Shown here piece after piece: positions 1 through 40,794 of a stretch of DNA of 41,001 bases. The DNA is taken from positions 1 to 41,001 of the forward strand of contig JAFPBK010000027.1 in assembly GCA_017424105.1 (NCBI GenBank). The letters run 5' to 3'. The notes beneath the pieces were generated by a model. It saw only the letters and a list, made by a program, of their open reading frames with translations, did not search any database and was not told the origin of the DNA. Numbering within the stretch: the stretch's first letter is position 1; each line of letters begins with the position of its first letter. A program made the translations under genes and the position numbers. The DNA comes from Kiritimatiellia bacterium. Its GTDB lineage: Bacteria > Verrucomicrobiota > Kiritimatiellia > RFP12 > UBA3636.

Positions 1-576
1 ATTTGGGATCCTGTTGACCAAGTTTATTCAACAACATTGTATTATGCAGGTGACGAGTATGATGAATATGGTATGATGGAAGCTCGTGGAGCAACTCCAG
101 GATCTTGGATCGATATGGCAACTCTTGGAAATTCTGATTTGACACTTAGAAATGGTGATGCTTTCTGGATTGATTCATCTACAGTCAATGCACAAGCAAT
201 AATTACTGGTGAAGTTCCAACAACAGCAAATACAATCACTATCATTCCAGGATTCAATATGGTTGCAAATCCATATCCAAAAGCAGTCAAGGTTAATGAT
301 TTATTTTCCATTAGTGGTCTTAAGGGGCTTGATTGGGGTATATTTGAAGAGCTAGGTGATACTCTTGAAATTTGGGATCCTGTTGACCAAGTTTATTCAA
401 CAACATTGTATTATGCAGGTGACGAGTATGATGAATATGGTATGATGGAAGCTCGTGGAGCAACTCCAGGATCTTGGATCGATATGGCGACTCTTGGAAA
501 TTCTGATATTGAAATTCCGGCAGGAGGTGCTTTCTGGGTAAACTCAAAGGTAACAGCAACACTAACATTCAAATAA
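1..576 (+). CDS. Tandem-repeat protein, 5' end cut by the window edge (module C, gene 1)
   Basis: Frame 1 is open from nt 1, and the track ORF 37..576 is in the same frame. Two ~123-aa repeats end in a G(D/G)AFW-type motif. It is a paralogue of 1940..2752 and 3452..4258. Confidence 0.7.
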   Translation: MWDPVDQVYSTTLYYAGDEYDEYGMMEARGATPGSWIDMATLGNSDLTLRNGDAFWIDSSTVNAQAIITGEVPTTANTITIIPGFNMVANPYPKAVKVNDLFSISGLKGLDWGIFEELGDTLEIWDPVDQVYSTTLYYAGDEYDEYGMMEARGATPGSWIDMATLGNSDIEIPAGGAFWVNSKVTATLTFK

Positions 577-639
577 TTTCTTATATTCACGACGAATATA
601 AGTTTAACTAAAAACTAAAATAGAAAGAAAATAAAAACA

Positions 640-1206
640 ATGAAAAAAATCGTAATAATCGCTGCAGTAGCACTTGTTGCTATGTCAATGCAGGCAGCTC
701 AGATTAACTGGGGTCTAACAGGTATGATTAAATTCAATAATAACCTTGTTGGATCAGGGGCTACTTTAACTCTTGTATGTCTAGATGGTGTTACAGACTG
801 GGAAACATATGCTAAAGATGTTGCTGCAGGAAAAGCAACATCTGGTATTGCTGCTACAAAAACTTCTGAAACTACATCTATGGCTATTCCAACAATGAAG
901 TCTTATGCATATACTTGGAGCGATGAAGGAACAGATATCGCAAATGCAGAAATCAAAAAAGGTACAGATTTTGCATTTGTTGTAACTGTTCAAGATGCAG
1001 GAAAATCTTATTACTGGGCTTCAGATGCATTTACCGTATCTGATACAAGTTCTAATTGGAATGGAACAAAGAACACCTACACAATGTCTGTTACAGTTTC
1101 AAACGCAATGGGTTCAGATGGTTCAAAGTGGACAGCTGTTCCAGAGCCAGCATCTGCTATGCTAGCACTTGCAGGCGTTGCAATGCTAATCCGCCGTCGT
1201 AAGTAA
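640..1206 (+). CDS. Small PEP-CTERM sorting-domain protein (module C, gene 2)
   Basis: N-terminal signal peptide MKKIVIIAAVALVAMSMQAAQ. C-terminal VPEPASAMLALAGVAMLIRRRK, which is PEP, then a TM helix, then a basic tail. Confidence 0.85.
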   Translation: MKKIVIIAAVALVAMSMQAAQINWGLTGMIKFNNNLVGSGATLTLVCLDGVTDWETYAKDVAAGKATSGIAATKTSETTSMAIPTMKSYAYTWSDEGTDIANAEIKKGTDFAFVVTVQDAGKSYYWASDAFTVSDTSSNWNGTKNTYTMSVTVSNAMGSDGSKWTAVPEPASAMLALAGVAMLIRRRK

Positions 1207-1237
1207 GCGACGCGCTGATTACAGCAAATATATAAAC

Positions 1238-1277
1238 AATAAAACCACCCTCGCAAGAGAGTGGTTTTATTGTTTTT
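1238..1277. terminator. Bidirectional intrinsic terminator between convergent PEP-CTERM genes
   Basis: AAACCACCCTC-gcaa-GAGAGTGGTTT hairpin with an A-run upstream and TTATTGTTTTT downstream. Confidence 0.6.
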
Positions 1278-1308
1278 AAGTTATGTGAGTATGTTTACTC
1301 TACCACAA

Positions 1309-1860
1309 TTACTTGCGGCGACGAATCAACATAGCTACACCAGCCAATGCCAACATTGCGCTAGCTGGCTCTGGAACAGCTGTGTATGTAGCTGTCCACT
1401 GAGATGGTGCAGCGATTGCTGATGAGGCGAATGTTGCTTGTGTTGGATCTTCGCCAGCAGCTTTATCATATGCATATGTAGGATATTGGTTTGTGCCAGT
1501 CATATAGTATAGTGCATTTGCTGAATCGTAAACAACGATAGCAAAGTTATACTGCTCTCCACCAGCTGAACGAGCAACTAGAGCATCGCTTGTTGCTGTT
1601 ACAGCTGTAGATGAGCTCTTACCTGCAGAAACAGTATCTGAGCTAATTGTTGCAGCAGCTAGTTGAGACTCAAATTCTTCTGCAGTTGTAGCATTGAAAG
1701 TTGTGTCTGCTAGAACTAGGTAAATTGTACCATTCATAGCTGCGCCTGTTGAATCAACAAACTTGCCTGAACGACCAAAATTTACAACCCAGTCAATAGA
1801 TGCTGCAGAAGCTGAAATAGCTACTAGAGCAACTGCCATCATTGTGATGAATTTTTTCAT
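1309..1860 (-). CDS. Small PEP-CTERM sorting-domain protein (module B, gene 2)
   Basis: Signal peptide MKKFITMMAVALVAISASAAS. The C-terminal VPEPASAMLALAGVAMLIRRRK is identical to the other two copies. Confidence 0.85.
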   Translation of the reverse strand: MKKFITMMAVALVAISASAASIDWVVNFGRSGKFVDSTGAAMNGTIYLVLADTTFNATTAEEFESQLAAATISSDTVSAGKSSSTAVTATSDALVARSAGGEQYNFAIVVYDSANALYYMTGTNQYPTYAYDKAAGEDPTQATFASSAIAAPSQWTATYTAVPEPASAMLALAGVAMLIRRRK

Positions 1861-1898
1861 ATTTTATTCTCTTTCTAATATTTGTTATAGTTTATTTA

Positions 1899-1928
1899 TA
1901 AAAAGTGGGAGAAAAATGTTCTCCCACT
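1899..1928 (-). terminator. Hairpin plus short U-run between module B gene 1 and gene 2
   Basis: AGTGGGAGAA-N5-TTCTCCCACT (10-bp stem) is followed on the minus strand by TTTTATAAA. Confidence 0.45.
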
Positions 1929-1939
1929 AAATCTTTATA

Positions 1940-2752
1940 TTATTCAGCGGATGGGAATGATACTGTACCACCATTACCTGCTAACATCCAAAAGCCCTGG
2001 CCAACAGCAATGTCAGCATGTAGAGCTGTCTGATAACCATCGCCCCAACCAGCTCCTAGAGCAATATCGTCATCATAATTATCTGGTGTGTTGTTTACAT
2101 CGTCAAAAACACCATCAACAGAATTACCCCAGTAGTATGCAGTCATATATGTTGCAGTAGCAGCGTCCCAGATTTTAATATAGTCTGTACCTTCTTCACC
2201 AAAACCTTCGCATTTGATGTCTTGTAATTCAATTGCCATAGGGAGAGTGTTACATACAAGGGTCATTGCATTAACTGGAAGAGTTATAGTATTTGAAGTA
2301 GAAACTTCGCCAGCGAATGTAGCTGTACCACCATTACCTGCTAGCATCCAGAAACCTTGTCCAGGAACGATTGTTGAGTGTAGAGCAGTCTGGTAACCAT
2401 CGCCCCAACCAGCACCTAGTGCGATATCGTCATCGTAATTATCAGGAGTGTTATTTACGTCATCAAAAACACCATCTACTGAGTCACCCCAATAGTATGC
2501 TGTCATATATGTAGCAGTAGATGCATCCCAGATTTTGATATAGTCTGTACCTTCTTCACCAAAACCTTCGCATTTGATGTCTTGAAGGTCTATTGAAGTG
2601 TCGCCAATATACTGGAATTGGTTACCAATAATTGTCATAGCATTAACAGGTAGTTCAATCTTTGAATAACCAACAACATTAGCTGATGGAACTTCTGTTG
2701 CGCTTGCGGCAGGGTTATTTTTGGAGCAAAAAAATAGGGGTAAAATTCGCAC
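1940..2752 (-). CDS. Tandem-repeat protein (module B, gene 1); start uncertain
   Basis: Two ~123-aa repeats (LQDIKCEGFGEEGTDYIKIWDA...GQGFWMLAGNGG). No signal peptide. The only upstream in-frame start is a GTG at 2752, in the loop of a hairpin. The first ATG is at 2638. Confidence 0.6.
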   Translation of the reverse strand: MRILPLFFCSKNNPAASATEVPSANVVGYSKIELPVNAMTIIGNQFQYIGDTSIDLQDIKCEGFGEEGTDYIKIWDASTATYMTAYYWGDSVDGVFDDVNNTPDNYDDDIALGAGWGDGYQTALHSTIVPGQGFWMLAGNGGTATFAGEVSTSNTITLPVNAMTLVCNTLPMAIELQDIKCEGFGEEGTDYIKIWDAATATYMTAYYWGNSVDGVFDDVNNTPDNYDDDIALGAGWGDGYQTALHADIAVGQGFWMLAGNGGTVSFPSAE

Positions 2753-2765
2753 GGAATTTTACCCC
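2728..2765 (-). promoter_or_regulatory. Conserved 12-bp-stem hairpin plus T7 tract overlapping the 5' end of the repeat-protein gene
   Basis: On the minus strand: GGGGTAAAATTC-cgtgc-GAATTTTACCCC, then TA, then T7. A homologous element lies at 4205..4240. Confidence 0.5.
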
Positions 2766-2804
2766 TTAAAAAGAGAAAAGCCACCCCCGTAAGGAGATGG
2801 CTTT
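2766..2804 (-). terminator. Intrinsic terminator of the PEP-CTERM gene 2838..3386
   Basis: On the minus strand, AAGCCATCTCC-ttac-GGGGGTGGCTT is followed by TTCTCTTTTT. Two positions pair as G-U only in the minus-strand transcript. Confidence 0.65.
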
Positions 2805-2837
2805 ATGAATTAGTTTGCTGTGTAATCAGCGATCGGA

Positions 2838-3386
2838 TTACTTACGACGGCGGATTAGCATTGCAACGCCTGCAAGTGCTAGCATAGCAGAAGCTGGCTC
2901 TGGAACAGCTGTATATTTAACATTAGAAGTGTTCTGATAAGTAGCACCAATATCATTATATCCAAATGTAATTGAAGTAGGTGTTGTTGGGTCTGTGTAG
3001 GCATATTGAGACTTTACAGCAGATAGATAATATTGTGCTCCATCATAAACAACAATTTGGAAATCATATTGAGAACCGCCTTGAGCTTGTGATAACCAGC
3101 TAGAATCTGTAGCTGTATTATTTGTTGCCTTACCATCTGCTACAGTTGTTGTTCCTACAGTAATAGATGATAGAGTGGACTCAAACGTTTCCTTTGTTGT
3201 TGTTGCTGTCAATGCCGCAGCATCATCAGCTAAGATTAGGTAAATATTACCATTGTAGTTAACTCCTGTTGAATCCACAATTCTTTTTGCTGCAGTAGTT
3301 AGACCAGAGAACTTCCAGTCAATAGAAGCTGCAGAAGCAGAAATTGCTACTAGAGCAACCATCATAATTGTTACTAATTTTTTCAT
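2838..3386 (-). CDS. Small PEP-CTERM sorting-domain protein (module A, gene 2)
   Basis: Signal peptide MKKLVTIMMVALVAISASAAS and C-terminal VPEPASAMLALAGVAMLIRRRK. Confidence 0.85.
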   Translation of the reverse strand: MKKLVTIMMVALVAISASAASIDWKFSGLTTAAKRIVDSTGVNYNGNIYLILADDAAALTATTTKETFESTLSSITVGTTTVADGKATNNTATDSSWLSQAQGGSQYDFQIVVYDGAQYYLSAVKSQYAYTDPTTPTSITFGYNDIGATYQNTSNVKYTAVPEPASAMLALAGVAMLIRRRK

Positions 3387-3451
3387 AGTTTTATTTTCTT
3401 TCTTTATTATTTTGTTTTAGTGGGAAGGTAACCCCATCCCAAAATTATTTT

Positions 3452-4258
3452 TTATTCAACAGTAGGAAAAACAACAGAGCCTCCATTAACGGACTGAACC
3501 CAGAAACCCTGACCAACATCTATCTTTATGTCAACGATAAGTTGATCTGCGTCACCCCAGCCAGCACCAAGAGTCTCTTCATATGTATCATCTGCAAATA
3601 CTCCATCAGCTTCTTCTCCGAAGAAATATGCTTCTTTATATGTACCTGTAGATGAATCCCAGAATTTAATCCAATCTGTACCATCCTGAGCAAAATCACC
3701 TGCAACAGTAATATCCTGAATGTTAATTGCTTGAGGAATTGGATTTGCTATAAGAGTCATTGCATTAACAGGTACATTAACTGTATTATTTTTTGAAACT
3801 TCGCCATTAAGAACCAATGAACCTCCATTAACAGATTGAGCCCAAAAACCCTGTCCTAGATTTACATCTAAATCAATGACAATCTGATCTGCGTCACCCC
3901 AACCAGCACCAAGAGACTCTTCATAATTGTCATCAATGAAAACTCCATCAGCTTCTTCTCCGAAGAAATATGCTTCTTGGTATGAACCTGTGGACGCATC
4001 CCAGAATTTAATCCAATCTGTACCATCCTGAGCAAAATCACCTGCAACAGTAATATCCTGAATGTTGATAATGGTCTCACCAATATTCTGGAACTGGTTA
4101 CCAACGATAGTCATTGCGTTAGCTGGTAGTGTAATCTTTGAATAACCAACAACATTAGCTGAGCCAACTTCTGTTGCGCTTGCGGCAAGGGTTGTTTTTG
4201 GAGCAAAAAAAGGGGTAAAATTTGCATGGAATTTACCCCTAAAAAACAGAAAAGCCAC
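3452..4258 (-). CDS. Tandem-repeat protein (module A, gene 1); start uncertain, possibly phase-off
   Basis: Two ~123-aa repeats (IQDITVAGDFAQDGTDWIKFWD...GQGFW.QSVNGGS). The 5' end has the same hairpin/T7 architecture as module B. The loop ATG at 4227 is one nt out of frame. The first in-frame ATG is at 4114. Confidence 0.55.
   Translation of the reverse strand: MAFLFFRGKFHANFTPFFAPKTTLAASATEVGSANVVGYSKITLPANAMTIVGNQFQNIGETIINIQDITVAGDFAQDGTDWIKFWDASTGSYQEAYFFGEEADGVFIDDNYEESLGAGWGDADQIVIDLDVNLGQGFWAQSVNGGSLVLNGEVSKNNTVNVPVNAMTLIANPIPQAINIQDITVAGDFAQDGTDWIKFWDSSTGTYKEAYFFGEEADGVFADDTYEETLGAGWGDADQLIVDIKIDVGQGFWVQSVNGGSVVFPTVE
4205..4240 (-). promoter_or_regulatory. Conserved hairpin plus T7 tract at the 5' end of the module A repeat-protein gene
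   Basis: On the minus strand: GGGGTAAATTC-catgc-AAATTTTACCCC (one bulge), then T7 (plus-strand A-run 4205-4211). Confidence 0.5.
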
Positions 4259-4282
4259 CCCAAAAAGGAGTGCAAAATTTTC

Positions 4283-4342
4283 TAGCGCTTTAATAAATTT
4301 GTCCCCAAGGTCTCCAATGTCCCCATTGTCCCCTAAGCGCTA
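4283..4342. repeat. Four tandem 9-mers bracketed by a short inverted repeat
   Basis: GTCCCCAAG GTCTCCAAT GTCCCCATT GTCCCCTAA (4301-4336) is flanked by TAGCGCTTTA and TAAGCGCTA. Confidence 0.75.
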
Positions 4343-4439
4343 AACTGCCTGTTCAATCGTCAAATCGTCTCACGAATTACGATTTTCACGCAATGCGTGC
4401 GTGCAAGGCACGCTAGGCCCGTTTTGAGTACAAGGCGGA

Positions 4440-5100
4440 ATATACGAGAGGAGCGTGTCGCTATCACTCACGCACCTCTCGCCTCCGAAGGCTCAGGCGC
4501 AGAGCGCCTTCGTATGCGCACTGATTATCTCAGTTGCGCATGAATAAATTTTAGAGATGTGTGAGGAGCCCTTCACAAATTTCGGGCACCTCACACCCAG
4601 TAATGTTATTAGATGAAGCGGTGCGAAGCACCATGAAGCATGCCTACGGCATATAAAGCATTGCGAAGCAATATATGCGGTGAGATTAAAACATATGATG
4701 TGCAGCACGGGGACGTACTGCACCCCAGTTATTCTGTAAGACGGGGACGTCTTACTGCCCAGTTAACGTGTAGGACGAGGACGTCCTACACCCCAGAGTT
4801 GTGCAAGACGAGACGGCATTACACCCCAGTTAAGCAAACACTTTAACTAATCTATTAGTTATTCACTAATCACTATTCACTAGATTCCGCGATAGTCAAT
4901 ACACGTTAATCTTGAAAAATCATCATGGTACTCCAGCCAGGACGACGCCTGGCCGCTCCGAGATAATTGAATCACGCCCACCACGTGCACAGCAACTAGC
5001 CACAAAACACGCACGCAGCATCCGCACAAATCCAAGCAAAATTATAGTCAATCCTGTCTAAAAACTTCGCACTTTTAGGCATCACGTGTTGTGCGTGCAC
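4440..5100. repeat. Mosaic intergenic repeat, copy A (inverted relative to copies B and C)
   Basis: It aligns by eye, as a reverse complement, to 11500-12075. Shared blocks are the mini-hairpin array, the ~33-nt hairpin array, the ATTCACT repeats and the ~200-bp core. Confidence 0.8.
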
Positions 5101-5108
5101 TAGAGTAG

Positions 5109-18312: not shown

Positions 18313-19695
18313 TTATTTGATGCTTTTTTCTTGAGCTTTACTATATTTGCTATTCAAAAAAGCACAATCACTTAATCCCATTCCTAAAGAATATAGAAGT
18401 ACGATCTCTCCGTCAGCAAGATTATACTCTACTAAACCAAAAAGAGCTAACGATGTGAACATAACCAGTGGGATTACTGCATATAATCCAGCACCACGTT
18501 TCCAATAAATAACCGCAGACACTATTGTAAATAAATACCAAAAAGCATATGCAGCCACACCAAGCCATCCAAAATCTACCAGAGCTTGAAGCGGTGTGCT
18601 ATGTACATGAGAATGCTGAAAATTCTCCATATTTGGACAATGTTGACGCATCTTTTCTGTCGTTAAAGATCTAAAACCAATTCCATATGGATGCTCTTCA
18701 TGGACTGCTGGAACAATTTGTGTCCACATAGCATAACGACCACCCTTTTCTATTGTAAATTCCTCAGGCAATTCAAGAATACGTGCTCTGGATGCAGGAA
18801 CTAAAAATACAACTGCAATAAATAAACCAAGAACTAAAACTGTAATTCGCTTGAAATAATAAAACACCAAAGGAACCATTACTACTAATACAGCCAAGAG
18901 AGGACCACGCTTACAAGTAAATATAAGTGCCAATGCTATCAGTAACAAAGTAATTAACTGCTTAAAACGCTGCTTGCATGGCAGCTTTTGCTTGCATGCA
19001 TCAATAAACAAATAAAAAGCAGCAGGAACCGCGACCATAAAACGCTGTGCCTCTTGCATTGTTCCTTGCAATATAAATACTTCCGACATATGACTTGGAC
19101 GATATGCAAAGTACTTTCTAATCTCAGCCCAAATATCATCGCCGACACCAAGAAATTCTGTCACATAAAATAGCCATTGGGACAAAAGAGGTATTGTCTC
19201 ACGGACCGCAGGATTTTTCATGTGGCTTACTTTTGGTATATTACACATAATCCATGATTTTAATGGATAAGAGATAATGACTATTATTGCACCAATTAAA
19301 CAACCAATAACATACCAACGCAATAGCTGAACAAAGCGCTCTTTACTATTAACTGACAATGCCACAATTGGTATTCCAATATACCAGATCAATTTATCAA
19401 TTTTACCCAATCCCTTAGAAGGATTTAATTGAGGGTCATTTAAACAGCAAGTAGCAATAATTGAAACTACTAAAGCTAAAACAAAATATGTCAACCACCC
19501 AATCGTTGGGCGACTGATACGAGCCCAACTATGCTGACGAATTGCTCTTACTAAACTGCCAACTGCTGATATCAACAAAAAAATTCGAGCTAATGGCATT
19601 GAAACGCCACAAAAGAATACAAAAGCAAGTAATGATGCCCAAACGAAATCTTCTTTTAAATATTCTATAGCTCTATTAAGTTTTGAATTTTTCAT
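18313..19695 (-). CDS. O-antigen ligase (Wzy_C) family polytopic membrane protein
   Basis: It has at least 10 predicted TM segments. HSHVHSTPLQALVDFGWLG resembles the Wzy_C signature H-N-x-y-L-q-x-l-x-e-x-G. Confidence 0.7.
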   Translation of the reverse strand: MKNSKLNRAIEYLKEDFVWASLLAFVFFCGVSMPLARIFLLISAVGSLVRAIRQHSWARISRPTIGWLTYFVLALVVSIIATCCLNDPQLNPSKGLGKIDKLIWYIGIPIVALSVNSKERFVQLLRWYVIGCLIGAIIVIISYPLKSWIMCNIPKVSHMKNPAVRETIPLLSQWLFYVTEFLGVGDDIWAEIRKYFAYRPSHMSEVFILQGTMQEAQRFMVAVPAAFYLFIDACKQKLPCKQRFKQLITLLLIALALIFTCKRGPLLAVLVVMVPLVFYYFKRITVLVLGLFIAVVFLVPASRARILELPEEFTIEKGGRYAMWTQIVPAVHEEHPYGIGFRSLTTEKMRQHCPNMENFQHSHVHSTPLQALVDFGWLGVAAYAFWYLFTIVSAVIYWKRGAGLYAVIPLVMFTSLALFGLVEYNLADGEIVLLYSLGMGLSDCAFLNSKYSKAQEKSIK

Positions 19696-19707: not shown

Positions 19708-20508
19708 TTACCAGAACATATATTTGCCTGTAGCAAGTACATATATACCTAATACAGCATTAGTGGTAATGTGTGCAATTGCAGCTGCCCAAATATCGCG
19801 AGTTTTAATATAGAATAATCCATAAATTATACCGCATAGAAAGCCTGCTAAAACTTCATTATGCTCAATAGCAAATATTGCTGCAACAATTAGGAAGGAT
19901 GGCCAATGAAGCTGACCGATATCTATATCCAAAAAGTCAGGGGTACGAGCAGTACGAAGCAAATATCCACGCCAGAAGAATTCCTCAATAATAGAAATAA
20001 TAAAGGCAGAACCAATGAAACGAATTGTCGTCATTGCAAAACCACAAACACTTGGAGCATATGGTGTTGACTCTAAAGGTGTACGCATTTCACCAAATGG
20101 CTTTACGCACCAAAGTTCATATTTTTCTGCAATAAAAGGACAAATACTTTTAAAAAATTCAGTTTCTAATCCAACCCAAAGGAAGAATACTCCAATACCT
20201 ATGCCTATAGCTGGTAAAATATTCTTTTTATTAAGAGCATTATAATATTTCCATGGGCGACAAATAAATAAAGCAATAACGCAAATAGCTGTGCGAATTG
20301 CATATAATGCTGGCAAAGAAACAATATTTAAAGATTTGATTTCTTCTGTTTCTGATCCCTCTGTGAGGTGCATCATATTTGCCAATAAAACGATTCCAAG
20401 CCACAATACAAATGGGACTGCATGTCTATATGCAGCGTTATCCATTCGGCGAGCTTTTTTGCTATTTTTCTTTGCTGGTTCTGTTGTTTTTATTTCTGTT
20501 GTATTCAT
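19708..20508 (-). CDS. CPBP (CAAX) family intramembrane metalloprotease
   Basis: EEFFWRGYL, FAIEHNE and AHITTNA motifs in a polytopic membrane protein. Confidence 0.8.
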   Translation of the reverse strand: MNTTEIKTTEPAKKNSKKARRMDNAAYRHAVPFVLWLGIVLLANMMHLTEGSETEEIKSLNIVSLPALYAIRTAICVIALFICRPWKYYNALNKKNILPAIGIGIGVFFLWVGLETEFFKSICPFIAEKYELWCVKPFGEMRTPLESTPYAPSVCGFAMTTIRFIGSAFIISIIEEFFWRGYLLRTARTPDFLDIDIGQLHWPSFLIVAAIFAIEHNEVLAGFLCGIIYGLFYIKTRDIWAAAIAHITTNAVLGIYVLATGKYMFW

Positions 20509-33941: not shown

Positions 33942-36281
33942 CTAAAGAGCCATTCCAATTTTAGACAAAACATTTTCAGCGATTAATCCACACTCCTCCT
34001 CGTCATCCGTCCAAAGGGAGTATTTCCCATCATTCATTGCCTTCAAACGATACGTATGGCCGTTCTTGGAGAAATCAATGCTATTGGTTTCAGGCTCTGG
34101 CTGAATTGAATCATGGAAACATCTAGTGCCTTCCGCTACTTTCTCATAAACATAAGCAAGCAACAACTCATAGCTGCGACTGTTCTCTGTCTTGCCCCGC
34201 GCAAGAAAGTAGTGCCCGGAAGCGCTTGAAACAACTCCCCAATAGGCGTAGTCGCGCATAAAAAGTTGTGGCATGGAAATCATAAATCTACGCCAATCGG
34301 TGACGGCTGATTTTCCTTCCACTATAACGGCATCACAAACCGCTATTATATTAATCTCCTCTTGCTTCTCCCTGCGCCAAAAATCAATAAAGGCCTTAAT
34401 CCCAGGTGCGTAACATCCGTCTATCTCATCTCTGAGATACCTCTTCCAAGAATAGAATCTTTCCGCAGGCGGGACAATGCCGAAAGATTTATGTTTTCCG
34501 AATCGATAGTCGGAAATCGTCAACATAGCCGCATAAAATTTGCATCTCTGCGATTCTTCAATTCCATCCGAGAAAAGAGCTGTAATGCCACGTAGGCATT
34601 TTGTGTACGCCGAGAATTCCGCTTTGTTACACACCCCATCATTTTTTGACCAGCAAAGGAGGCATCCAATTTGTCCGCGAAGATATGCGTCGGTTTCAGC
34701 CTCCCTCATCAAATTTGCCCACTCTGTATCTGCACAGCGAAGTTTGGCCTTAGCAGATTCCTCTTCGATTCTCGCACGCTCAAAGCCTGGCACATTCTTG
34801 ATTGTGCCCAGAAACTCGTCCATTCTCATTTCGCATTTTTCGAATTCCTCCATCCAGCGGTCAATCTGTGTCATTGCCGTGATAACCTTGCCGACATCGT
34901 CAAACCTGTCGTTGCAATTTTCAATTATCGTACAGTTCCTGAGAAATCTTCCCCAAGACTTGAAATCTTCGAGCCTGACGTTTTCGCCATCGGCATTGCC
35001 GTTGACAGCCATTGTACGCAACGGAAATTTTCTCAGAAATGCCAACACACCATAAAATCCGAGTCTTTCGGGATAAGTGAATGAATCCTGGAGGTAAAGA
35101 TCAAGAAGGTTTCTAGAACCTGTTGAATCCCAACCGTATTCAGGATCAAGATATTTCGTGAAATCAAACCATTGGCGATCCTGCTCTACCTCGGTGAAAC
35201 CTATCAACGACTGCATGTCGTTGTACAGTTGCAGAAAATCAATGTACAAATATCTCGCAGCCGTGGAATGGCGCGCACGCCACGCCTCTGCCGTGTAGCG
35301 TGGAACTAACAACTCTAGCGTTCGCTCATCGCGAGAATTGGCAACCTCTGCGAGTTGCGGGCACACATTCTGTCTTGCAAACTGGATTGAAATCAGTCGC
35401 AGCAAAAGACGCATATATCGATCTTCAACTTCGGCGACATCCACCTCGCCGTTTTCACGGATACCCCGCTGTCCCCAGAAGTAATCAATCCAATCGTTGT
35501 CGACAATCCGCTTCCATTCTTCTTCAAATGCGGCAGTTCCTTTTTCATCGGCACCCATAGCATTTTGCTGGCGCAATTCCTCTTCGAGCGTTGACTTCAA
35601 GATATCGAAAGCCGAAAGTTGCAGCCCTCTCGCATTCATTTTCACGTAGAGCTCGTCGCCTTGGGAAAACTTATTGAGATCGAGCCAGTGAAACGTTATG
35701 CAGGAAAGTGCATCATAGCGACTGGTGTCGTAAGTATAGCCGGATTCCTTCAGCAAAGCAAACACTTCATCGATAACCACCAGCATTGAAATAACGGTAG
35801 CGTCTTTCCGCCAAGCCCACTTGAACCAGTCTTTCCTGCATAGTACTTCCGAGACCTGAAGGCTCTTCGCATTTGCCTCATGGTGCAATACGCATGCAAC
35901 ATGCTTAACAATTTCATTGCAGAACTCTTCCGCAGAGATGCGCGTTTCATACGTGAATCTCGATAATCCATCCAAACCGATTAAATCTTTCTTATCGGCA
36001 GGCGAAAATATCCAGTGTAGTATGAATAGCGTTGTGAGACGTTGCTGGCCATCTAGAGGCTCGAACGCGTCATTGCGGTCGTAGCCATAGATGAAATCGA
36101 GATGCAGCGGACGCTGTCCGTTGGAATATACCGAATCGAGAAGATCGTTAAGAAACGCCCTGCGGATGTCACGGATCTTCGGTTTCCTACGCCCCTCGGC
36201 ATAATCGCGTTGTATCTGCGGTATCCGGATCTTACTCGTCTTAAGCAAATCGAGAAACGTCATATTGATCTGCTCGCTCAC
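33942..36281 (-). CDS. DUF262 (ParB/Srx-fold NTPase-like) protein with a long unassigned C-terminal region
   Basis: IRIPQIQRDYAEGR, LDGQQRLTTLFILHW and YVKMNARGLQLSAFDILKS. No DUF1524 His-Me motif was found. The GTG start overlaps the upstream stop (GTGA) and lies 6 nt after a GGAGGTG. Confidence 0.85.
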   Translation of the reverse strand: MSEQINMTFLDLLKTSKIRIPQIQRDYAEGRRKPKIRDIRRAFLNDLLDSVYSNGQRPLHLDFIYGYDRNDAFEPLDGQQRLTTLFILHWIFSPADKKDLIGLDGLSRFTYETRISAEEFCNEIVKHVACVLHHEANAKSLQVSEVLCRKDWFKWAWRKDATVISMLVVIDEVFALLKESGYTYDTSRYDALSCITFHWLDLNKFSQGDELYVKMNARGLQLSAFDILKSTLEEELRQQNAMGADEKGTAAFEEEWKRIVDNDWIDYFWGQRGIRENGEVDVAEVEDRYMRLLLRLISIQFARQNVCPQLAEVANSRDERTLELLVPRYTAEAWRARHSTAARYLYIDFLQLYNDMQSLIGFTEVEQDRQWFDFTKYLDPEYGWDSTGSRNLLDLYLQDSFTYPERLGFYGVLAFLRKFPLRTMAVNGNADGENVRLEDFKSWGRFLRNCTIIENCNDRFDDVGKVITAMTQIDRWMEEFEKCEMRMDEFLGTIKNVPGFERARIEEESAKAKLRCADTEWANLMREAETDAYLRGQIGCLLCWSKNDGVCNKAEFSAYTKCLRGITALFSDGIEESQRCKFYAAMLTISDYRFGKHKSFGIVPPAERFYSWKRYLRDEIDGCYAPGIKAFIDFWRREKQEEINIIAVCDAVIVEGKSAVTDWRRFMISMPQLFMRDYAYWGVVSSASGHYFLARGKTENSRSYELLLAYVYEKVAEGTRCFHDSIQPEPETNSIDFSKNGHTYRLKAMNDGKYSLWTDDEEECGLIAENVLSKIGMAL

Positions 36282-38101
36282 TTTGCACCTCCATTCAAAT
36301 AAATGTTGAGCCGCTTATGCAGTTCTTTCTTATAGCACATCATGTCGCTTGTATGCCAACGAACGGCATCCATGGCGGATGCAGTGCCCCCCGAAAAGTA
36401 TTTGAGAAAGACATTTTTCGTCCCTAGAGGAACGAAAAGTCCATTACGGTCCCGTTCGATTACGCAGTCTCTTTTGTACGGAAATGGCGCATTGCCATAT
36501 CCGCGATTCGTACCGCTGTCAAGAAGGACGAGATTGCCAAGCGAATCTTTGTCGGACGCATCTTGGTCGAAACCAGTTCCACGCGAATAGTATTCGGAAA
36601 CCTTTCCATATAAATCGAGGAAAGCATCCCCGGAATCCCTCCGATCGCGTGTCATGGCTTCAATCAGTGACTGAGATTCCAAAAAGAGTTCTTTAGCGTC
36701 TTTCGATGATTCCGCTGATAGCGATTGTGCAACGCATTCAAGCCATTTTATCTTATCATCGATATCCTGCATTGTATTTGTCGTCTGAGAATCAACATGT
36801 TCGATATCCCAATTCTCCTCCCTGTAAGCTGCGAAGTCGAAGCGAAGCCCAGAAGTGCGATAAAGATCTACATTGAACAGGAGAAGTATTTTGCGGACGC
36901 TGTTGGAATCTTCGTATGTGACCGTTTCTATATCTGCCACATGTTTCAAGACGCCTGATATCAGACCTCGCAAAACACAATAGGTTTGTTCCTCGTCCCA
37001 ATCATCGGCATCCTTTTTGGCTTTTTCAATCGCCGAGTGAATATCCGATGGACTTTTACCATTTGCAACAAGGTATCCGACATAGTTATATATGTTAGTG
37101 TCTTCATACCAGTGGACAAGCATATCAAAAATACCCTTGACGCGATTCCACAATTCCAGAAACGCTCCCCCACCGTCAGCTTCGTCAAAGCATTGCTGAA
37201 ACCATCTGTAAGATCCATCGGTACCAGGTTTCTCGCCTGACACAAAATCAAAGAGAAGGTCCATCCGAGTTAGGGGATCTGCGGACTTGTCGCTTATGAA
37301 ACACCAAAATCCGTCATCAGAGAATCGACACTCCATAGCATCCCAAATCATAGAAATCTTCAAACTCTCGGACTCCCAACGTTCTTCAGTCTTCTTGCAG
37401 GCAAGTATAAATAGAGCCTTGATAAGTTCAGACGAAGTAAGTCCTATTTTTCCCTTATTCAGGCGGTTAAAAACTTTTATCGCCTCAACTCTTTCATCCG
37501 ATTCAGCAACAACGGTTTTATCAAAGGGAGGAACTACATACCATATAAACTGCACTTTCCGATCGCTGTCACTATCAAACAAGGCACATTCAAACTGCCC
37601 AAATGCCTTCGGATATTTTTCTGAAACAACCTCCATCCACTCCCTGATCAAATTGTTGGCTTTATGAAGATGATAGCTGTCTATGTCATTTTGAGGATCA
37701 AGGCGGTCAAGATCAAGATTCTTGCGTGCTGCATATTTTATCACATAAAGCCTATTCATGACCCTTTCCGCCTTCTTTGGCGATAGATATGGAATGAGAT
37801 TTTTCAATACAAGCAGCATTGTCGTCAATCGCTGCTGCCCATCCAACACTTCCCATTCTCCATTTTCCAAATTTCGAACCACAACAGGCTGTAAAAAATA
37901 TGACACGGCTGCCGTGGCACGGACAAAGGACAACATGTCATCAAGAAGGTCCTTTACTTGTTTGTCACCCCACCGATAGCCACGCTGAAATGATGGTATC
38001 AGAAAACGATGGTTTCCGTCCAAGAATTCCGCAACAGCCTTCGGTCTTAATGTATCAACCTGGCGCCCCCCCGCCATTTCAACTGTTCTTTCTTCTGTCA
38101 T
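36278..38101 (-). CDS. GmrSD-family type IV restriction endonuclease-like protein (DUF262 + DUF1524)
   Basis: The N-terminus has LIPSFQRGYRWGDKQV and LDGQQRLTTMLLVL. The C-terminus has WDIEHVDSQT and LGNLVLLDSGTNRGYGN, a His-Me finger of DUF1524 type. ATG 38101 behind AGGAG is preferred over the track's TTG at 38107. Confidence 0.85.
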   Translation of the reverse strand: MTEERTVEMAGGRQVDTLRPKAVAEFLDGNHRFLIPSFQRGYRWGDKQVKDLLDDMLSFVRATAAVSYFLQPVVVRNLENGEWEVLDGQQRLTTMLLVLKNLIPYLSPKKAERVMNRLYVIKYAARKNLDLDRLDPQNDIDSYHLHKANNLIREWMEVVSEKYPKAFGQFECALFDSDSDRKVQFIWYVVPPFDKTVVAESDERVEAIKVFNRLNKGKIGLTSSELIKALFILACKKTEERWESESLKISMIWDAMECRFSDDGFWCFISDKSADPLTRMDLLFDFVSGEKPGTDGSYRWFQQCFDEADGGGAFLELWNRVKGIFDMLVHWYEDTNIYNYVGYLVANGKSPSDIHSAIEKAKKDADDWDEEQTYCVLRGLISGVLKHVADIETVTYEDSNSVRKILLLFNVDLYRTSGLRFDFAAYREENWDIEHVDSQTTNTMQDIDDKIKWLECVAQSLSAESSKDAKELFLESQSLIEAMTRDRRDSGDAFLDLYGKVSEYYSRGTGFDQDASDKDSLGNLVLLDSGTNRGYGNAPFPYKRDCVIERDRNGLFVPLGTKNVFLKYFSGGTASAMDAVRWHTSDMMCYKKELHKRLNIYLNGGAK

Positions 38102-38132
38102 TTCCAAAATCTCCTTTTTTTATTCTCTACAA

Positions 38133-39218: not shown

Positions 39219-40265
39219 TCACTTGAGCCTGAAATAGGTGGTATTTTTGCCGTTGCCCTCACGCGCAAGATCCCCCTCGGCAACGAGCTTACGAAGTGCG
39301 CCCTCTACCGAGCTGATACTGAGGGACGGACAAAGCTCCATGACGTCCTGCTTCTTGAAGCGACCGACCTTATTCATCGTGGCGCGTCTCACCATTTCAA
39401 GAGAGGAAAGCTTGGTTTCCACAAGTGCAAAGCGGTCTTCAAAATCACGGTACGCGGAAAGGATCGTACCGAGCAGATATTTGATGAACGGTACGGTATC
39501 CGCTTCTCCCTCGTGCCAGCCTTGCTGCGACTGCCCTAGGGCATCGTAATACAGATCTTTGTTCTTTGCTATCTTGGCTTCCAAGGAGATATACTTCCCA
39601 ACGTAGAATCCGTTTCGGTAAAGGAGGAGCGTGGTGAGCAGACGGCTCATTCTGCCGTTGCCATCATTGAACGGATGGATGCAAAGAAAATCGTGTATAA
39701 AGGTAGGAATGGCAATGAGAGGCTCAAGCTCCATATTGCCGATCACACGGTTATATTCGTTACAAATGGCTTCAAGTGCCTCTGGTGTCTCAAAGGGGTC
39801 GAGAGGTGTAAACAGCGTTTCAGTATGTCCGTCGGGATAGGTTGCGCTGATATAATTCTGTACGCTCTTAGTTCTGCCTGCCACGGGATTGTTCATATGG
39901 CTGTAGAGGATCTTGTGAAGATGAAGGATATAGTTCGGTGTCAAGGGGATGGCATCAAAGCTTTCGTGAATGATATTCAAAACGTCTCGGTACCCGGCAA
40001 TCTCCTGCTCTTCGCGGTTTCTCGGTGTGGACTTCTCACCCATCAGCTGACGAATACGGGTGCTCGTGGTCACGATGCCCTCAATGGCGTTGGACGCTTC
40101 GGTGCTTTGTACCTTTGCAATCTCAACAAGCTTTTCAAGCTCCTCAGGGCGTTGCTTCAAATATAATTCTTGTTTTCCGGCTTCCTTGTAAATTGCGGCA
40201 ATCAAGCCGAGCAACTCGGAATCCCATTTGTTTTCACTGATTTTCGTATAATTAAAGGTTCTCAT
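39219..40265 (-). CDS. fic: Fic family protein (class II, N-terminal inhibitory motif, C-terminal wHTH-like region)
   Basis: The Fic motif is HPFNDGNGRMSRLL. The Fic_N-type inhibitory motif is SNAIEG (S-x-x-x-E-G). The start was set to ATG 40265, 5 nt after GGAGGTG. Confidence 0.9.
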   Translation of the reverse strand: MRTFNYTKISENKWDSELLGLIAAIYKEAGKQELYLKQRPEELEKLVEIAKVQSTEASNAIEGIVTTSTRIRQLMGEKSTPRNREEQEIAGYRDVLNIIHESFDAIPLTPNYILHLHKILYSHMNNPVAGRTKSVQNYISATYPDGHTETLFTPLDPFETPEALEAICNEYNRVIGNMELEPLIAIPTFIHDFLCIHPFNDGNGRMSRLLTTLLLYRNGFYVGKYISLEAKIAKNKDLYYDALGQSQQGWHEGEADTVPFIKYLLGTILSAYRDFEDRFALVETKLSSLEMVRRATMNKVGRFKKQDVMELCPSLSISSVEGALRKLVAEGDLAREGNGKNTTYFRLK

Positions 40266-40283
40266 TTTATCACCTCCAAACAA

Positions 40284-40376
40284 TTCCCTTAAATTATAGC
40301 ACAAATCAAGGGGATTGTCAACATCTCAAGGGAACATTCCCTTATTATTTTACTCAAATTAAGGGAATTTATTCAT
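40284..40376. promoter_or_regulatory. Cluster of AAGGGRA/TYCCCTT half-sites upstream of fic, including a palindrome
   Basis: TTCCCTT at 40284, AAGGGGA at 40308, the palindrome AAGGGAA-CA-TTCCCTT at 40328-40343, and AAGGGAA at 40370. Confidence 0.4.
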
Positions 40377-40595: not shown

Positions 40596-40720
40596 AAATG
40601 TACACATGCTGGTCCATTCTCACTCTTACATGGATTATTGCTGTTGTGTAAGAGCACACAAAAACAACAATCGTAAAACTATTTTGCCCGCAGCTTAAGC
40701 ATGCGGGCAAAAAAAAATGG
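40596..40720. repeat. Direct repeat DR'2, abutting the tRNA-Pro 3' end
   Basis: It is the partner of 38985-39108. Its last 3 nt are the complement of the tRNA's CCA. Confidence 0.9.
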
Positions 40721-40794
40721 TCGGAGAGGCGGGATTCGAACCCACGACAGCCAGTTCCCAAAACTGGTGCGCTACCAGACTGCGCTACTCTCCG
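40718..40794 (-). tRNA. tRNA-Pro (anticodon TGG)
   Basis: Manual cloverleaf: CGGAGAG/CTCTCCG acceptor stem, GCGC/GCGC D stem, CCAGT-TTTGGGA-ACTGG anticodon arm, GTGGG-TTCGAAT-CCCGC T arm, discriminator A and an encoded CCA. Length is 77 nt. Confidence 0.9.

Follow-up and report, generated by a model that had tools for sequence, protein, structure and literature searches.

A probable single-expression-site array of switchable two-gene surface-protein cassettes in gut Kiritimatiellae

Introduction

Switching among silent surface-protein genes by DNA inversion at a single expression site is an already known strategy, whose closest described kind to the case treated here is the Mycoplasma single-promoter inversion locus. 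The present work concerns a stretch of 41,001 nucleotides (nt), hereafter the window, from a Kiritimatiellia bacterium (positions 1 to 41,001 of contig JAFPBK010000027.1, GenBank assembly GCA_017424105.1), which, judged from comparison of assembled sequences, most probably contains one end of a shufflon-like array of surface-protein switching cassettes served by a single expression site. Kiritimatiellae are common yet almost unstudied members of animal gut communities, and to our knowledge no programmed surface-variation system has been described for them.

In the vsa locus of Mycoplasma pulmonis, with the HvsR tyrosine recombinase encoded nearby, one expression site is inverted onto silent genes truncated at their 5′ ends (PMC2268961). 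The Kiritimatiellae arrays resemble vsa in gathering the promoter (here presumed), the ribosome-binding site and the 5′ coding end at one site, and in having the recombination site inside the coding region. They differ in the extent of the constant part, which in vsa covers the initial 714 nt of coding sequence and in Kiritimatiellae only the signal peptide, so that the entire mature protein would be replaced. Moreover, vsa cassettes are single lipoprotein genes, whereas those of Kiritimatiellae are two-gene operons whose second gene is complete; the two systems also differ in phylum, in site sequence and in their proteins, and a sister Kiritimatiellae lineage has a tandem recombinase pair that lies, in one arrangement, inside the invertible segment. 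M. agalactiae's vpma locus and the vsp locus of M. bovis (Xer1/Mbr) have a unique promoter, inversions, an adjacent recombinase gene, and terminators within the locus (PMC2268961). A unique promoter for several silent surface-protein genes, switching by inversion and terminators in the locus would all be shared with Kiritimatiellae, but in vpma recombination takes place within the 5′ untranslated region (-1 to -72) and no gene loses its signal peptide, whereas the Kiritimatiellae site falls at the cleavage codon and the silent genes are leaderless.

Multiple inversions in the R64/IncI shufflon (Rci, sfx sites, PilV tip adhesins) put alternative coding ends on a constant N-terminal part, and the sfx sites are asymmetric, with one arm conserved, a feature echoed by the silent Kiritimatiellae sites, which keep one arm of a palindrome. 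That shufflon, unlike the Kiritimatiellae system, is plasmid-borne, swaps C-terminal segments of a single pilin gene and has one recombinase. Switching of sapA in Campylobacter fetus is RecA-dependent and uses ~600 bp of 5′ homology; there too a promoter segment inverts between opposed promoterless cassettes sharing their 5′ end, as in the layout around an 889-nt segment in one related Kiritimatiellae locus (L001), but the shared sequence in Kiritimatiellae is 13-47 nt and the sister lineage encodes tyrosine recombinases. Closer in phylogeny is Akkermansia muciniphila, a relative within the Planctomycetes-Verrucomicrobia-Chlamydiae (PVC) superphylum, in which invertible promoters occur near PEP-CTERM genes (inverton group 138; PMC11892184). 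PEP-CTERM surface proteins would be under DNA-inversion control in both, but in Akkermansia small promoter elements flip single genes on or off, with no exchange of leaderless cassettes at one site. The second gene of each Kiritimatiellae cassette has the PEP motif, hydrophobic helix and basic cluster of proteins sorted by the PEP-CTERM/exosortase system (Haft et al. 2006, PMC1569441), and its relatives are annotated PEP-CTERM; among described PEP-CTERM systems we found none in which a PEP-CTERM gene is said to have a leaderless partner. A literature search returned no paper on Kiritimatiellae cassette switching, and a 2023 Nucleic Acids Research survey of gene-altering inversions mentions neither PEP-CTERM nor Verrucomicrobia. 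What appears new is not the strategy but the phylum, the site and the cassette in the form of a two-gene operon, together with an exchange point placed exactly at the codon where signal peptidase cleaves, the tandem pair of recombinases, and the protein families.

In the mechanism that we propose, each cassette comprises the leaderless mature part of gene 1 and a complete small PEP-CTERM gene 2. One expression site per genome supplies a conserved upstream region (with a presumed promoter), a ribosome-binding site and the constant signal peptide, and stops precisely where signal peptidase cleaves. When it recombines with a silent site of opposite orientation, the DNA between the two would be inverted and a different cassette placed behind promoter and leader, further inversions would shuffle the array, and terminator hairpins before the silent cassettes would keep these off; only the pair at the expression site is likely to be transcribed. 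The purpose may well be variation of a surface structure in the face of phages or the host's immunity.

On this reading, the single-expression-site cassette strategy best known from Mycoplasma extends to the PVC superphylum, in an economical design that keeps the signal peptide constant while swapping a whole mature protein together with its partner gene. It would also mark some 3,000 uncharacterised secreted proteins, with their PEP-CTERM partners, as the principal variable surface component of the cell and, on that account, as prime candidates for phage receptors, immunoglobulin targets and adhesins. Since gene callers assign spurious N-termini to silent cassettes and contigs break here during assembly, the family is systematically misread in catalogues of metagenome-assembled genomes (MAGs).

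Leaderless gene pairs in the window

The first-pass annotation of the window, made from the sequence alone, had described one gene pair occurring three times, and the open reading frame (ORF) listing and translation bear out all three. Copy A, on the plus strand, is cut by the window edge, with the last 191 codons and stop of gene 1 at 1..576, a 63-nt spacer at 577..639 (a hairpin at ~580-602, then an A-rich leader) and, at 640..1206, a gene 2 of 188 amino acids with a signal peptide, a divergent middle and a VPEPASAMLALAGVAMLIRRRK PEP-CTERM tail. The other two pairs are on the minus strand. Copy B has the body of gene 1 at 1940..2710 (256 mature codons and stop, beginning AASATEV, without start codon or signal peptide), a 79-nt spacer at 1861..1939 (terminator-like hairpin at 1904-1928 with a T-run, then an A-rich leader) and a PEP-CTERM gene 2 of 183 amino acids at 1309..1860; copy C has its gene 1 body at 3452..4186 (244 mature codons and stop), a 65-nt spacer at 3387..3451 (hairpin, then A-rich leader) and a PEP-CTERM gene 2 of 182 amino acids at 2838..3386. 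Pairs A and B converge on a hairpin at 1231..1278 whose 22-nt arms are 91% complementary and which looks like a bidirectional terminator.

The spacer hairpins noted earlier are present in all three copies (-7.6, -17.1 and -10.6 kcal/mol for A, B and C), differ in sequence among them, and are each followed by an A-rich AGAAAGARAATAAAA-type leader; Rfam has no match in the cassette region. Every gene 2 copy is equipped with a start codon, a leader and a signal peptide, and its three-part build is as first annotated: the signal peptides, each opening with MKK, are 59-82% identical between copies, the middles 24-42%, and the tail, VPEP-ASAMLALAGVAMLI-RRRK, is the same in all three at 24 of 24 residues. 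The two internal repeats of gene 1 are likewise real, spaced by 369, 360 and 342 nt with DNA identities of 99% (across 138 nt in copy A), 84% and 85%. Repeats inside one gene 1 share 71-84% of their amino acids, far above the 47-50% for the same repeat across paralogues, and hence evolve in concert, a pattern that indicates probable ongoing intragenic homogenisation.

Where the first description fails is at the 5′ ends of gene 1. The starts that it placed at 4258 and 2752 merely delimit maximal open frames, the true coding bodies beginning at 4186 and 2710, and the first ~24 codons of those frames read through terminator-like hairpins on the minus strand (2736-2804 and 4205-4272). Neither an ATG nor a signal peptide precedes the conserved mature N-terminus, AASATEVxSANVVGYSKI; tandem T-run hairpins stand there instead, and the sole "start" codon in these frames is a GTG within a hairpin. 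Between gene 2 of pair C and silent gene 1 copy B lie two tandem terminator-like hairpins (2777-2804 and 2736-2766, together 2736..2804, minus strand), with a T-run after each, and the hairpin element upstream of copy C (4205..4272, minus strand) is 73% identical to the element at 2731-2796. Terminator-like hairpins stand before silent cassettes, and the region has 14 of them in all, against 3.7 ± 1.6 expected. Copy A is also leaderless in L001, with a double hairpin and a core site before it. Alignment places a normal signal peptide in homologues P0001, P0009, P0012, P0022 and P0027 where gene 1 of the window has none, while P0003, P0005 and P0014, from other metagenomes, open with meaningless hairpin read-through like the window copies. 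The three pairs are most probably not three functional paralogous operons, as had been thought: the gene 1 copies are start-less and leaderless, and would be expressible only once joined to an expression site outside the window.

Arrays, expression sites and the recombination core

Related arrays of the window's lineage, which is of low guanine-plus-cytosine content (low-GC), were compared at loci L001-L008 and L025-L028; a genome-collection scan with alignment A2 yielded 5 loci. All derive from Kiritimatiellae of animal guts, and the arrays hold 4-7 two-gene cassettes and one expression site. A complete array lies between groEL and fabZ-lpxA-gspD on a 108-kb MAG contig (L025), with one expression site and 4 leaderless cassettes; L026/L027 have one expression site and 6 leaderless cassettes, and L004 one and 3. 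L001 and L002, which match window positions 1-2724 at 99.96% and carry a gene 2 identical to that of copy A, have one full-length gene 1 with a signal peptide, and in L001 the 889-nt segment is bounded by two inverted sites.

At the first mature codon of gene 1, on the signal-peptide boundary, lies a 13-nt core, TGCCGCAAGCGCA. All low-GC cassettes, expressed or silent and in both orientations, open with TGCCGCAAGCGCA[AG]C[ACG]GAAGT, a 21-nt pattern that occurs twice in the window and not once in 100 shuffles; both occurrences are on the minus strand (copy B, 2691..2711; copy C, 4167..4187) and have the same sequence, TGCCGCAAGCGCAACAGAAGT, whose first 13 nt are the family core. In a comparison of 24 distinct cassette 5′ ends, of which 5 are expressed and 19 silent, the core is invariant, save for one position in one cassette (T for G, L006). 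The third-codon positions of GCC GCA AGC GCA are 100% conserved in this set, against 33% to 92% downstream of the core, including the codons for the protein-conserved NVVGY. With synonymous positions frozen here and downstream codons variable, the core must be constrained at the DNA level, and its short length and frozen synonymous sites argue for a site-specific enzyme in the low-GC lineage. Used to scan metagenomes of the Joint Genome Institute, the 21-nt core gave chance matches only, in unrelated genes (L011-L015).

At the expression site the core sits inside TGTTGCGCTTGC-C-GCAAGCGCAACA, self-complementary at 24 of 25 positions, whereas silent sites have only the right arm of this palindrome. 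The constant signal peptide of the low-GC expression site, MKKILLGAMIASVALA, is joined to the mature protein as MKKILLGAMIASVALA/ASATEV (the slash marking the junction), and identical signal peptides occur on bodies from different 50%-identity clusters. The ~200 nt upstream are 85-98% identical across L003, L004/L005, L025 and L026, where the gene bodies are very different, and the promoter is presumed to lie in this conserved region. Within ~350 nt upstream of every low-GC expression site there are 8-10 copies of a 9-nt motif, TTGCNCCAA, against 0.1-0.5 expected per locus (L025 2160-2411; L004 230-497; L003 2658-2925; L026 557-825; L001 7829-8003). The window has single copies on the minus strand, at 2721..2729 (core B) and 4198..4206 (core C), each ~18 nt upstream of its silent core site. 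The cluster may be a binding array for a regulator or a recombinase accessory factor.

Exchange at the core in the low-GC lineage

The assemblies of the window's lineage record exchanges at this site in backgrounds 99.96-100% identical. Over 8,173 nt L001 and L002 show 3 mismatches, after which they have nothing in common from a point within the core (GCGCA/GCC versus GCGCA/ACA), with the same left flank and a different cassette. Copy B of the window is 100% identical over 1,300 nt to its counterpart in L001/L002 and has a different flank, namely the double hairpin and pair C in the window and an AT-rich flank with an AbiEi/AbiEii module in L001/L002. The same cassette is seen at an expression site in one assembly and silent in another: that at the expression site of L004/L005 matches a silent cassette behind an array-end flank in L027/L028 (98% identity over 1,290 nt), the alignment beginning just past the core; that at the expression site of L003 matches a silent cassette of L006 at 93.5% over 1,300 nt; and the body of copy C is 89% identical in DNA to the L003 expression-site body encoding P0001, the homology stopping at the core. 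In addition, flank types (the spacer segments between cassettes) are seen in opposite orientations in different genomes.

Reciprocal inversion and a recombinase pair in a sister lineage

In a sister lineage of higher GC content, a 39-nt core, GCCCGCATGGGCC/GCGGAGGTCGTCTCCTCCAACATCGT, likewise lies at the signal-peptide cleavage site. L016 joins the signal peptide to one body (P22) and a silent flank to another (Q). L017, 99.8-99.98% identical to L016, ends with the P22 body attached to the same silent flank (70 of 70 positions). In P0058, whose gene is on L023 and L024, the signal peptide is attached to the Q body; P0058 is 99.6% identical to the silent cassette of L016. On L024, positions 23-614 correspond to L016 8478-9069 and 552-1947 to L016 5524-4129 reversed. 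These four junctions are the two parental and the two recombinant products of a single reciprocal inversion.

In L016 the inverted sites enclose a 3.5-kb segment, which carries the presumed promoter, the signal peptide and two tandem paralogous tyrosine recombinase genes, whose products are 53% identical to each other and have Phage_integrase and Xer-like matches. This pair, a Kiritimatiellae-specific family, adjoins the expression site in L016/L017/L023, L022 and L031: in L022 it stands before the expression site (60-69% identity), and L031 has a 57%-identical pair directly beside another gene 1 with a signal peptide. An enzyme of this class presumably acts in the window's lineage.

The two proteins and their pairing

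The first-pass annotation recognised no named domain in gene 1, and Pfam and NCBIfam searches agree, with nothing below E = 0.005 and all matches under cutoff. The family is nevertheless a large one: it has 2,977 representatives at E ≤ 0.001, and 1,277 if E ≤ 1e-10 is required, mostly of two repeats and 230-280 amino acids. A crude classifier assigned normal signal peptides to about half of 118 inspected N-termini; by eye about a quarter were leaderless with the conserved junction, and the remainder were truncated gene calls. An AlphaFold2 model (predicted local distance difference test, pLDDT, 94.2; predicted template-modelling score, pTM, 0.88) is all-beta with two domains, and the gene 1 product is, on this prediction, a secreted protein of two tandem beta-sandwich domains. 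A Foldseek search with this model, as had been proposed earlier, found no match at E ≤ 0.001 in PDB or BFVD (template-modelling score, TM, ≤ 0.26); the CUB-like and PHM-like top matches of the fold searches with the two proteins had TM < 0.25 and were not used.

The model of gene 2 (pLDDT 78) has a small beta-rich domain flanked by the signal peptide and the tail helix, and its fold has no significant match in PDB. Its tail in the window scores just under the PEP-CTERM cutoffs (PF07589, 20.3 bits against 20.7; TIGR02595, 13.9-14.0 against 16), a narrow shortfall on a model of 24 residues, with the full motif present (PEP, hydrophobic helix, basic cluster); sister-lineage copies pass with 24.0 and 25.5 bits. 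As stated in the first annotation, the window has no exosortase gene among the scanned ORFs of at least 120 amino acids. The first annotation proposed that gene 1 may be a ligand-binding partner and gene 2 the anchored one; the gene 1 product has no anchor of its own, and may be held at the surface by the gene 2 product.

The first-pass reading of a diversifying family of modules had been made to depend on gene 1 matching no well-described family and on the pairing recurring elsewhere, and so it survives: gene 1 matches no described family, and beyond the window a PEP-CTERM gene 2 lies downstream in 44 of 44 cassettes with enough sequence. The modules do form a diversifying family, reading frames are intact in all cassettes, and across 29 distinct cassettes the divergences of gene 1 and gene 2 are correlated (r = 0.93; Mantel 0/2000). 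From the constant pairing and correlated divergence it follows that the cassettes are inherited, and presumably function, as units.

Weighing the alternatives

Several points tell against switching by site-specific inversion at a single expression site. All the evidence is comparative, drawn from assembled contigs of different assemblies, and the expression site of the window's own genome lies beyond the window. The four reciprocal junctions were not all seen in the low-GC lineage, so that gene conversion may be the route there. Neither the window nor the low-GC loci L001-L008 and L025-L028 contain a recombinase gene; tblastn with the sister-lineage recombinase finds no match in them, nor does any known low-GC array contig carry an orthologue of the sister-lineage pair. 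That pair, moreover, is not exclusive to cassettes, since it also lies directly upstream of a 5,092-amino-acid Gly_rich_2 surface protein (L029/L030, 6487-8717 and 8892 onward); no inverted repeats were detected in the part of that locus covered, and the recombinase family may control other surface loci too. Finally, a sigma-70 scan called no promoter in the conserved region upstream of the expression site and, in the window, called 15 promoters against 14.8 expected, and with no excess and no call at that site no promoter is claimed from consensus.

The same architecture might instead be worked by RecA-dependent homologous recombination or gene conversion, as in C. fetus sapA and Neisseria pilE/pilS, through the conserved 5′ block and the 3′ PEP-CTERM tail. 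Besides the want of a recombinase linked to low-GC arrays, this account can point to conserved DNA that brackets the cassettes (~21-45 nt at the 5′ end and, at the 3′ end, a 92-nt tail block 93% identical between copies A and C) and to the concerted gene 1 repeats as a sign of active recombination. We nonetheless regard it as unlikely. Only 13 nt are strictly invariant, the switch point of L001 and L002 falls inside these, and 13 nt are too short for efficient RecA exchange; the freezing of synonymous sites is confined to the core rather than extending over a longer homology block; spacer segments lie in both orientations across genomes, as inversion would give; and the sister lineage has reciprocal products with tyrosine recombinases adjacent.

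Another kind of enzyme might carry out the low-GC exchange, reading the 25-nt expression-site palindrome as a hairpin or cruciform, with silent partners serving as half-sites that have the right arm and TTGCNCCAA copies as accessory sites. The only nearby enzyme genes in the low-GC loci would be its candidates. One, at L003 372-1658, is an IS110-family transposase gene (RNA-guided, Piv-related; 124 bits against a cutoff of 140), 1.5 kb upstream of the expression site and found at this locus only, which could supply a Piv-like or bridge-RNA-type enzyme; the other, at L025 476-1666, is a weak RAYT-like gene beside palindromes resembling repetitive extragenic palindromes (REP), which could supply an HUH protein. 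Each occurs at one locus and both lie in REP-like repeat regions, for which reasons they were judged probably incidental, and a palindrome-reading enzyme seems distinctly unlikely; if real, it would be a mechanistically new way to program gene-cassette exchange.

It is very improbable that the pairs are three independently expressed paralogous operons, products of ordinary duplication and divergence, with gene 1 translated in place from the hairpin GTG or the internal Met of NAMTIVGNQ. The intact frames of all cassettes, the gene 2 copies with start codon, leader and signal peptide of their own, and the read-through of copy B (MRILPLFFCSKNNPAASA), loosely like a short signal peptide, would fit such operons. 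But the sequence upstream of the core differs fully among cassettes, often with in-frame stops 2-10 codons upstream, the read-through of copy C is unlike a signal peptide, the supposed start sits within terminator-like hairpins, an internal Met start would drop the signal peptide and the conserved first strand, and identical cassettes occur both joined to the constant signal peptide and lacking it.

An origin in static rearrangements between strains or in artefacts of assembly (old fixed differences, or contigs chimeric at a short repeat) is scarcely credible: all comparisons are indeed between different samples or assemblies, and the loci are on short contigs that often end near sites, but backgrounds are 99.8-99.98% identical outside the breakpoints, the junction repeat (13-63 nt) is shorter than the k = 141 implied by k141 contig names, junction contigs run more than 1 kb to either side (L023, L024), junction types recur in independent samples with different contig naming (k141_, NODE_, scaffold_), and contig breaks at sites are what mixed orientations would produce.

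Other features of the arrays and the window

Toxin-antitoxin or abortive-infection modules lie between cassettes in every array examined, comprising AbiEi/AbiEii, AAA_21/RloB, PIN/MazE, HepT/MNT and HigB-like/HTH types (L001 3966-5614; L006 1100-2571; L008/L026-L028, for example L026 9229-12528; L025 7643-8991; L004 3704-5681; L016 10452-13059). By analogy with superintegrons they may stabilise the array against deletion between direct repeats, or may simply mark a defence island. GC-rich REP-like palindromes flank the arrays in L003, L004 and L025.

Beyond the cassettes, an 836-nt non-coding stretch (4273-5108) separates the array from a GT2 glycosyltransferase gene, and holds 3.8 copies of TGTCCCCAA at 4300-4333 and ~2.6 tandem 34-nt units, with a small palindrome in each, at 4700-4833, similar to the REP-like palindromes that flank the other arrays. 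Adjoining genes encode a Wzy_C/O-antigen-ligase-like membrane protein (18313-19695) and an Rce1-like CPBP intramembrane protease (19708-20508); both are candidates for envelope processing, but not exosortases. The window's far end has a small defence islet, in which a pair of adjacent GmrSD-family (DUF262-type) restriction endonuclease genes (33942-38107) and a Fic/DOC gene (39219-40304) lie next to tRNA-Pro(TGG) (40718-40794).

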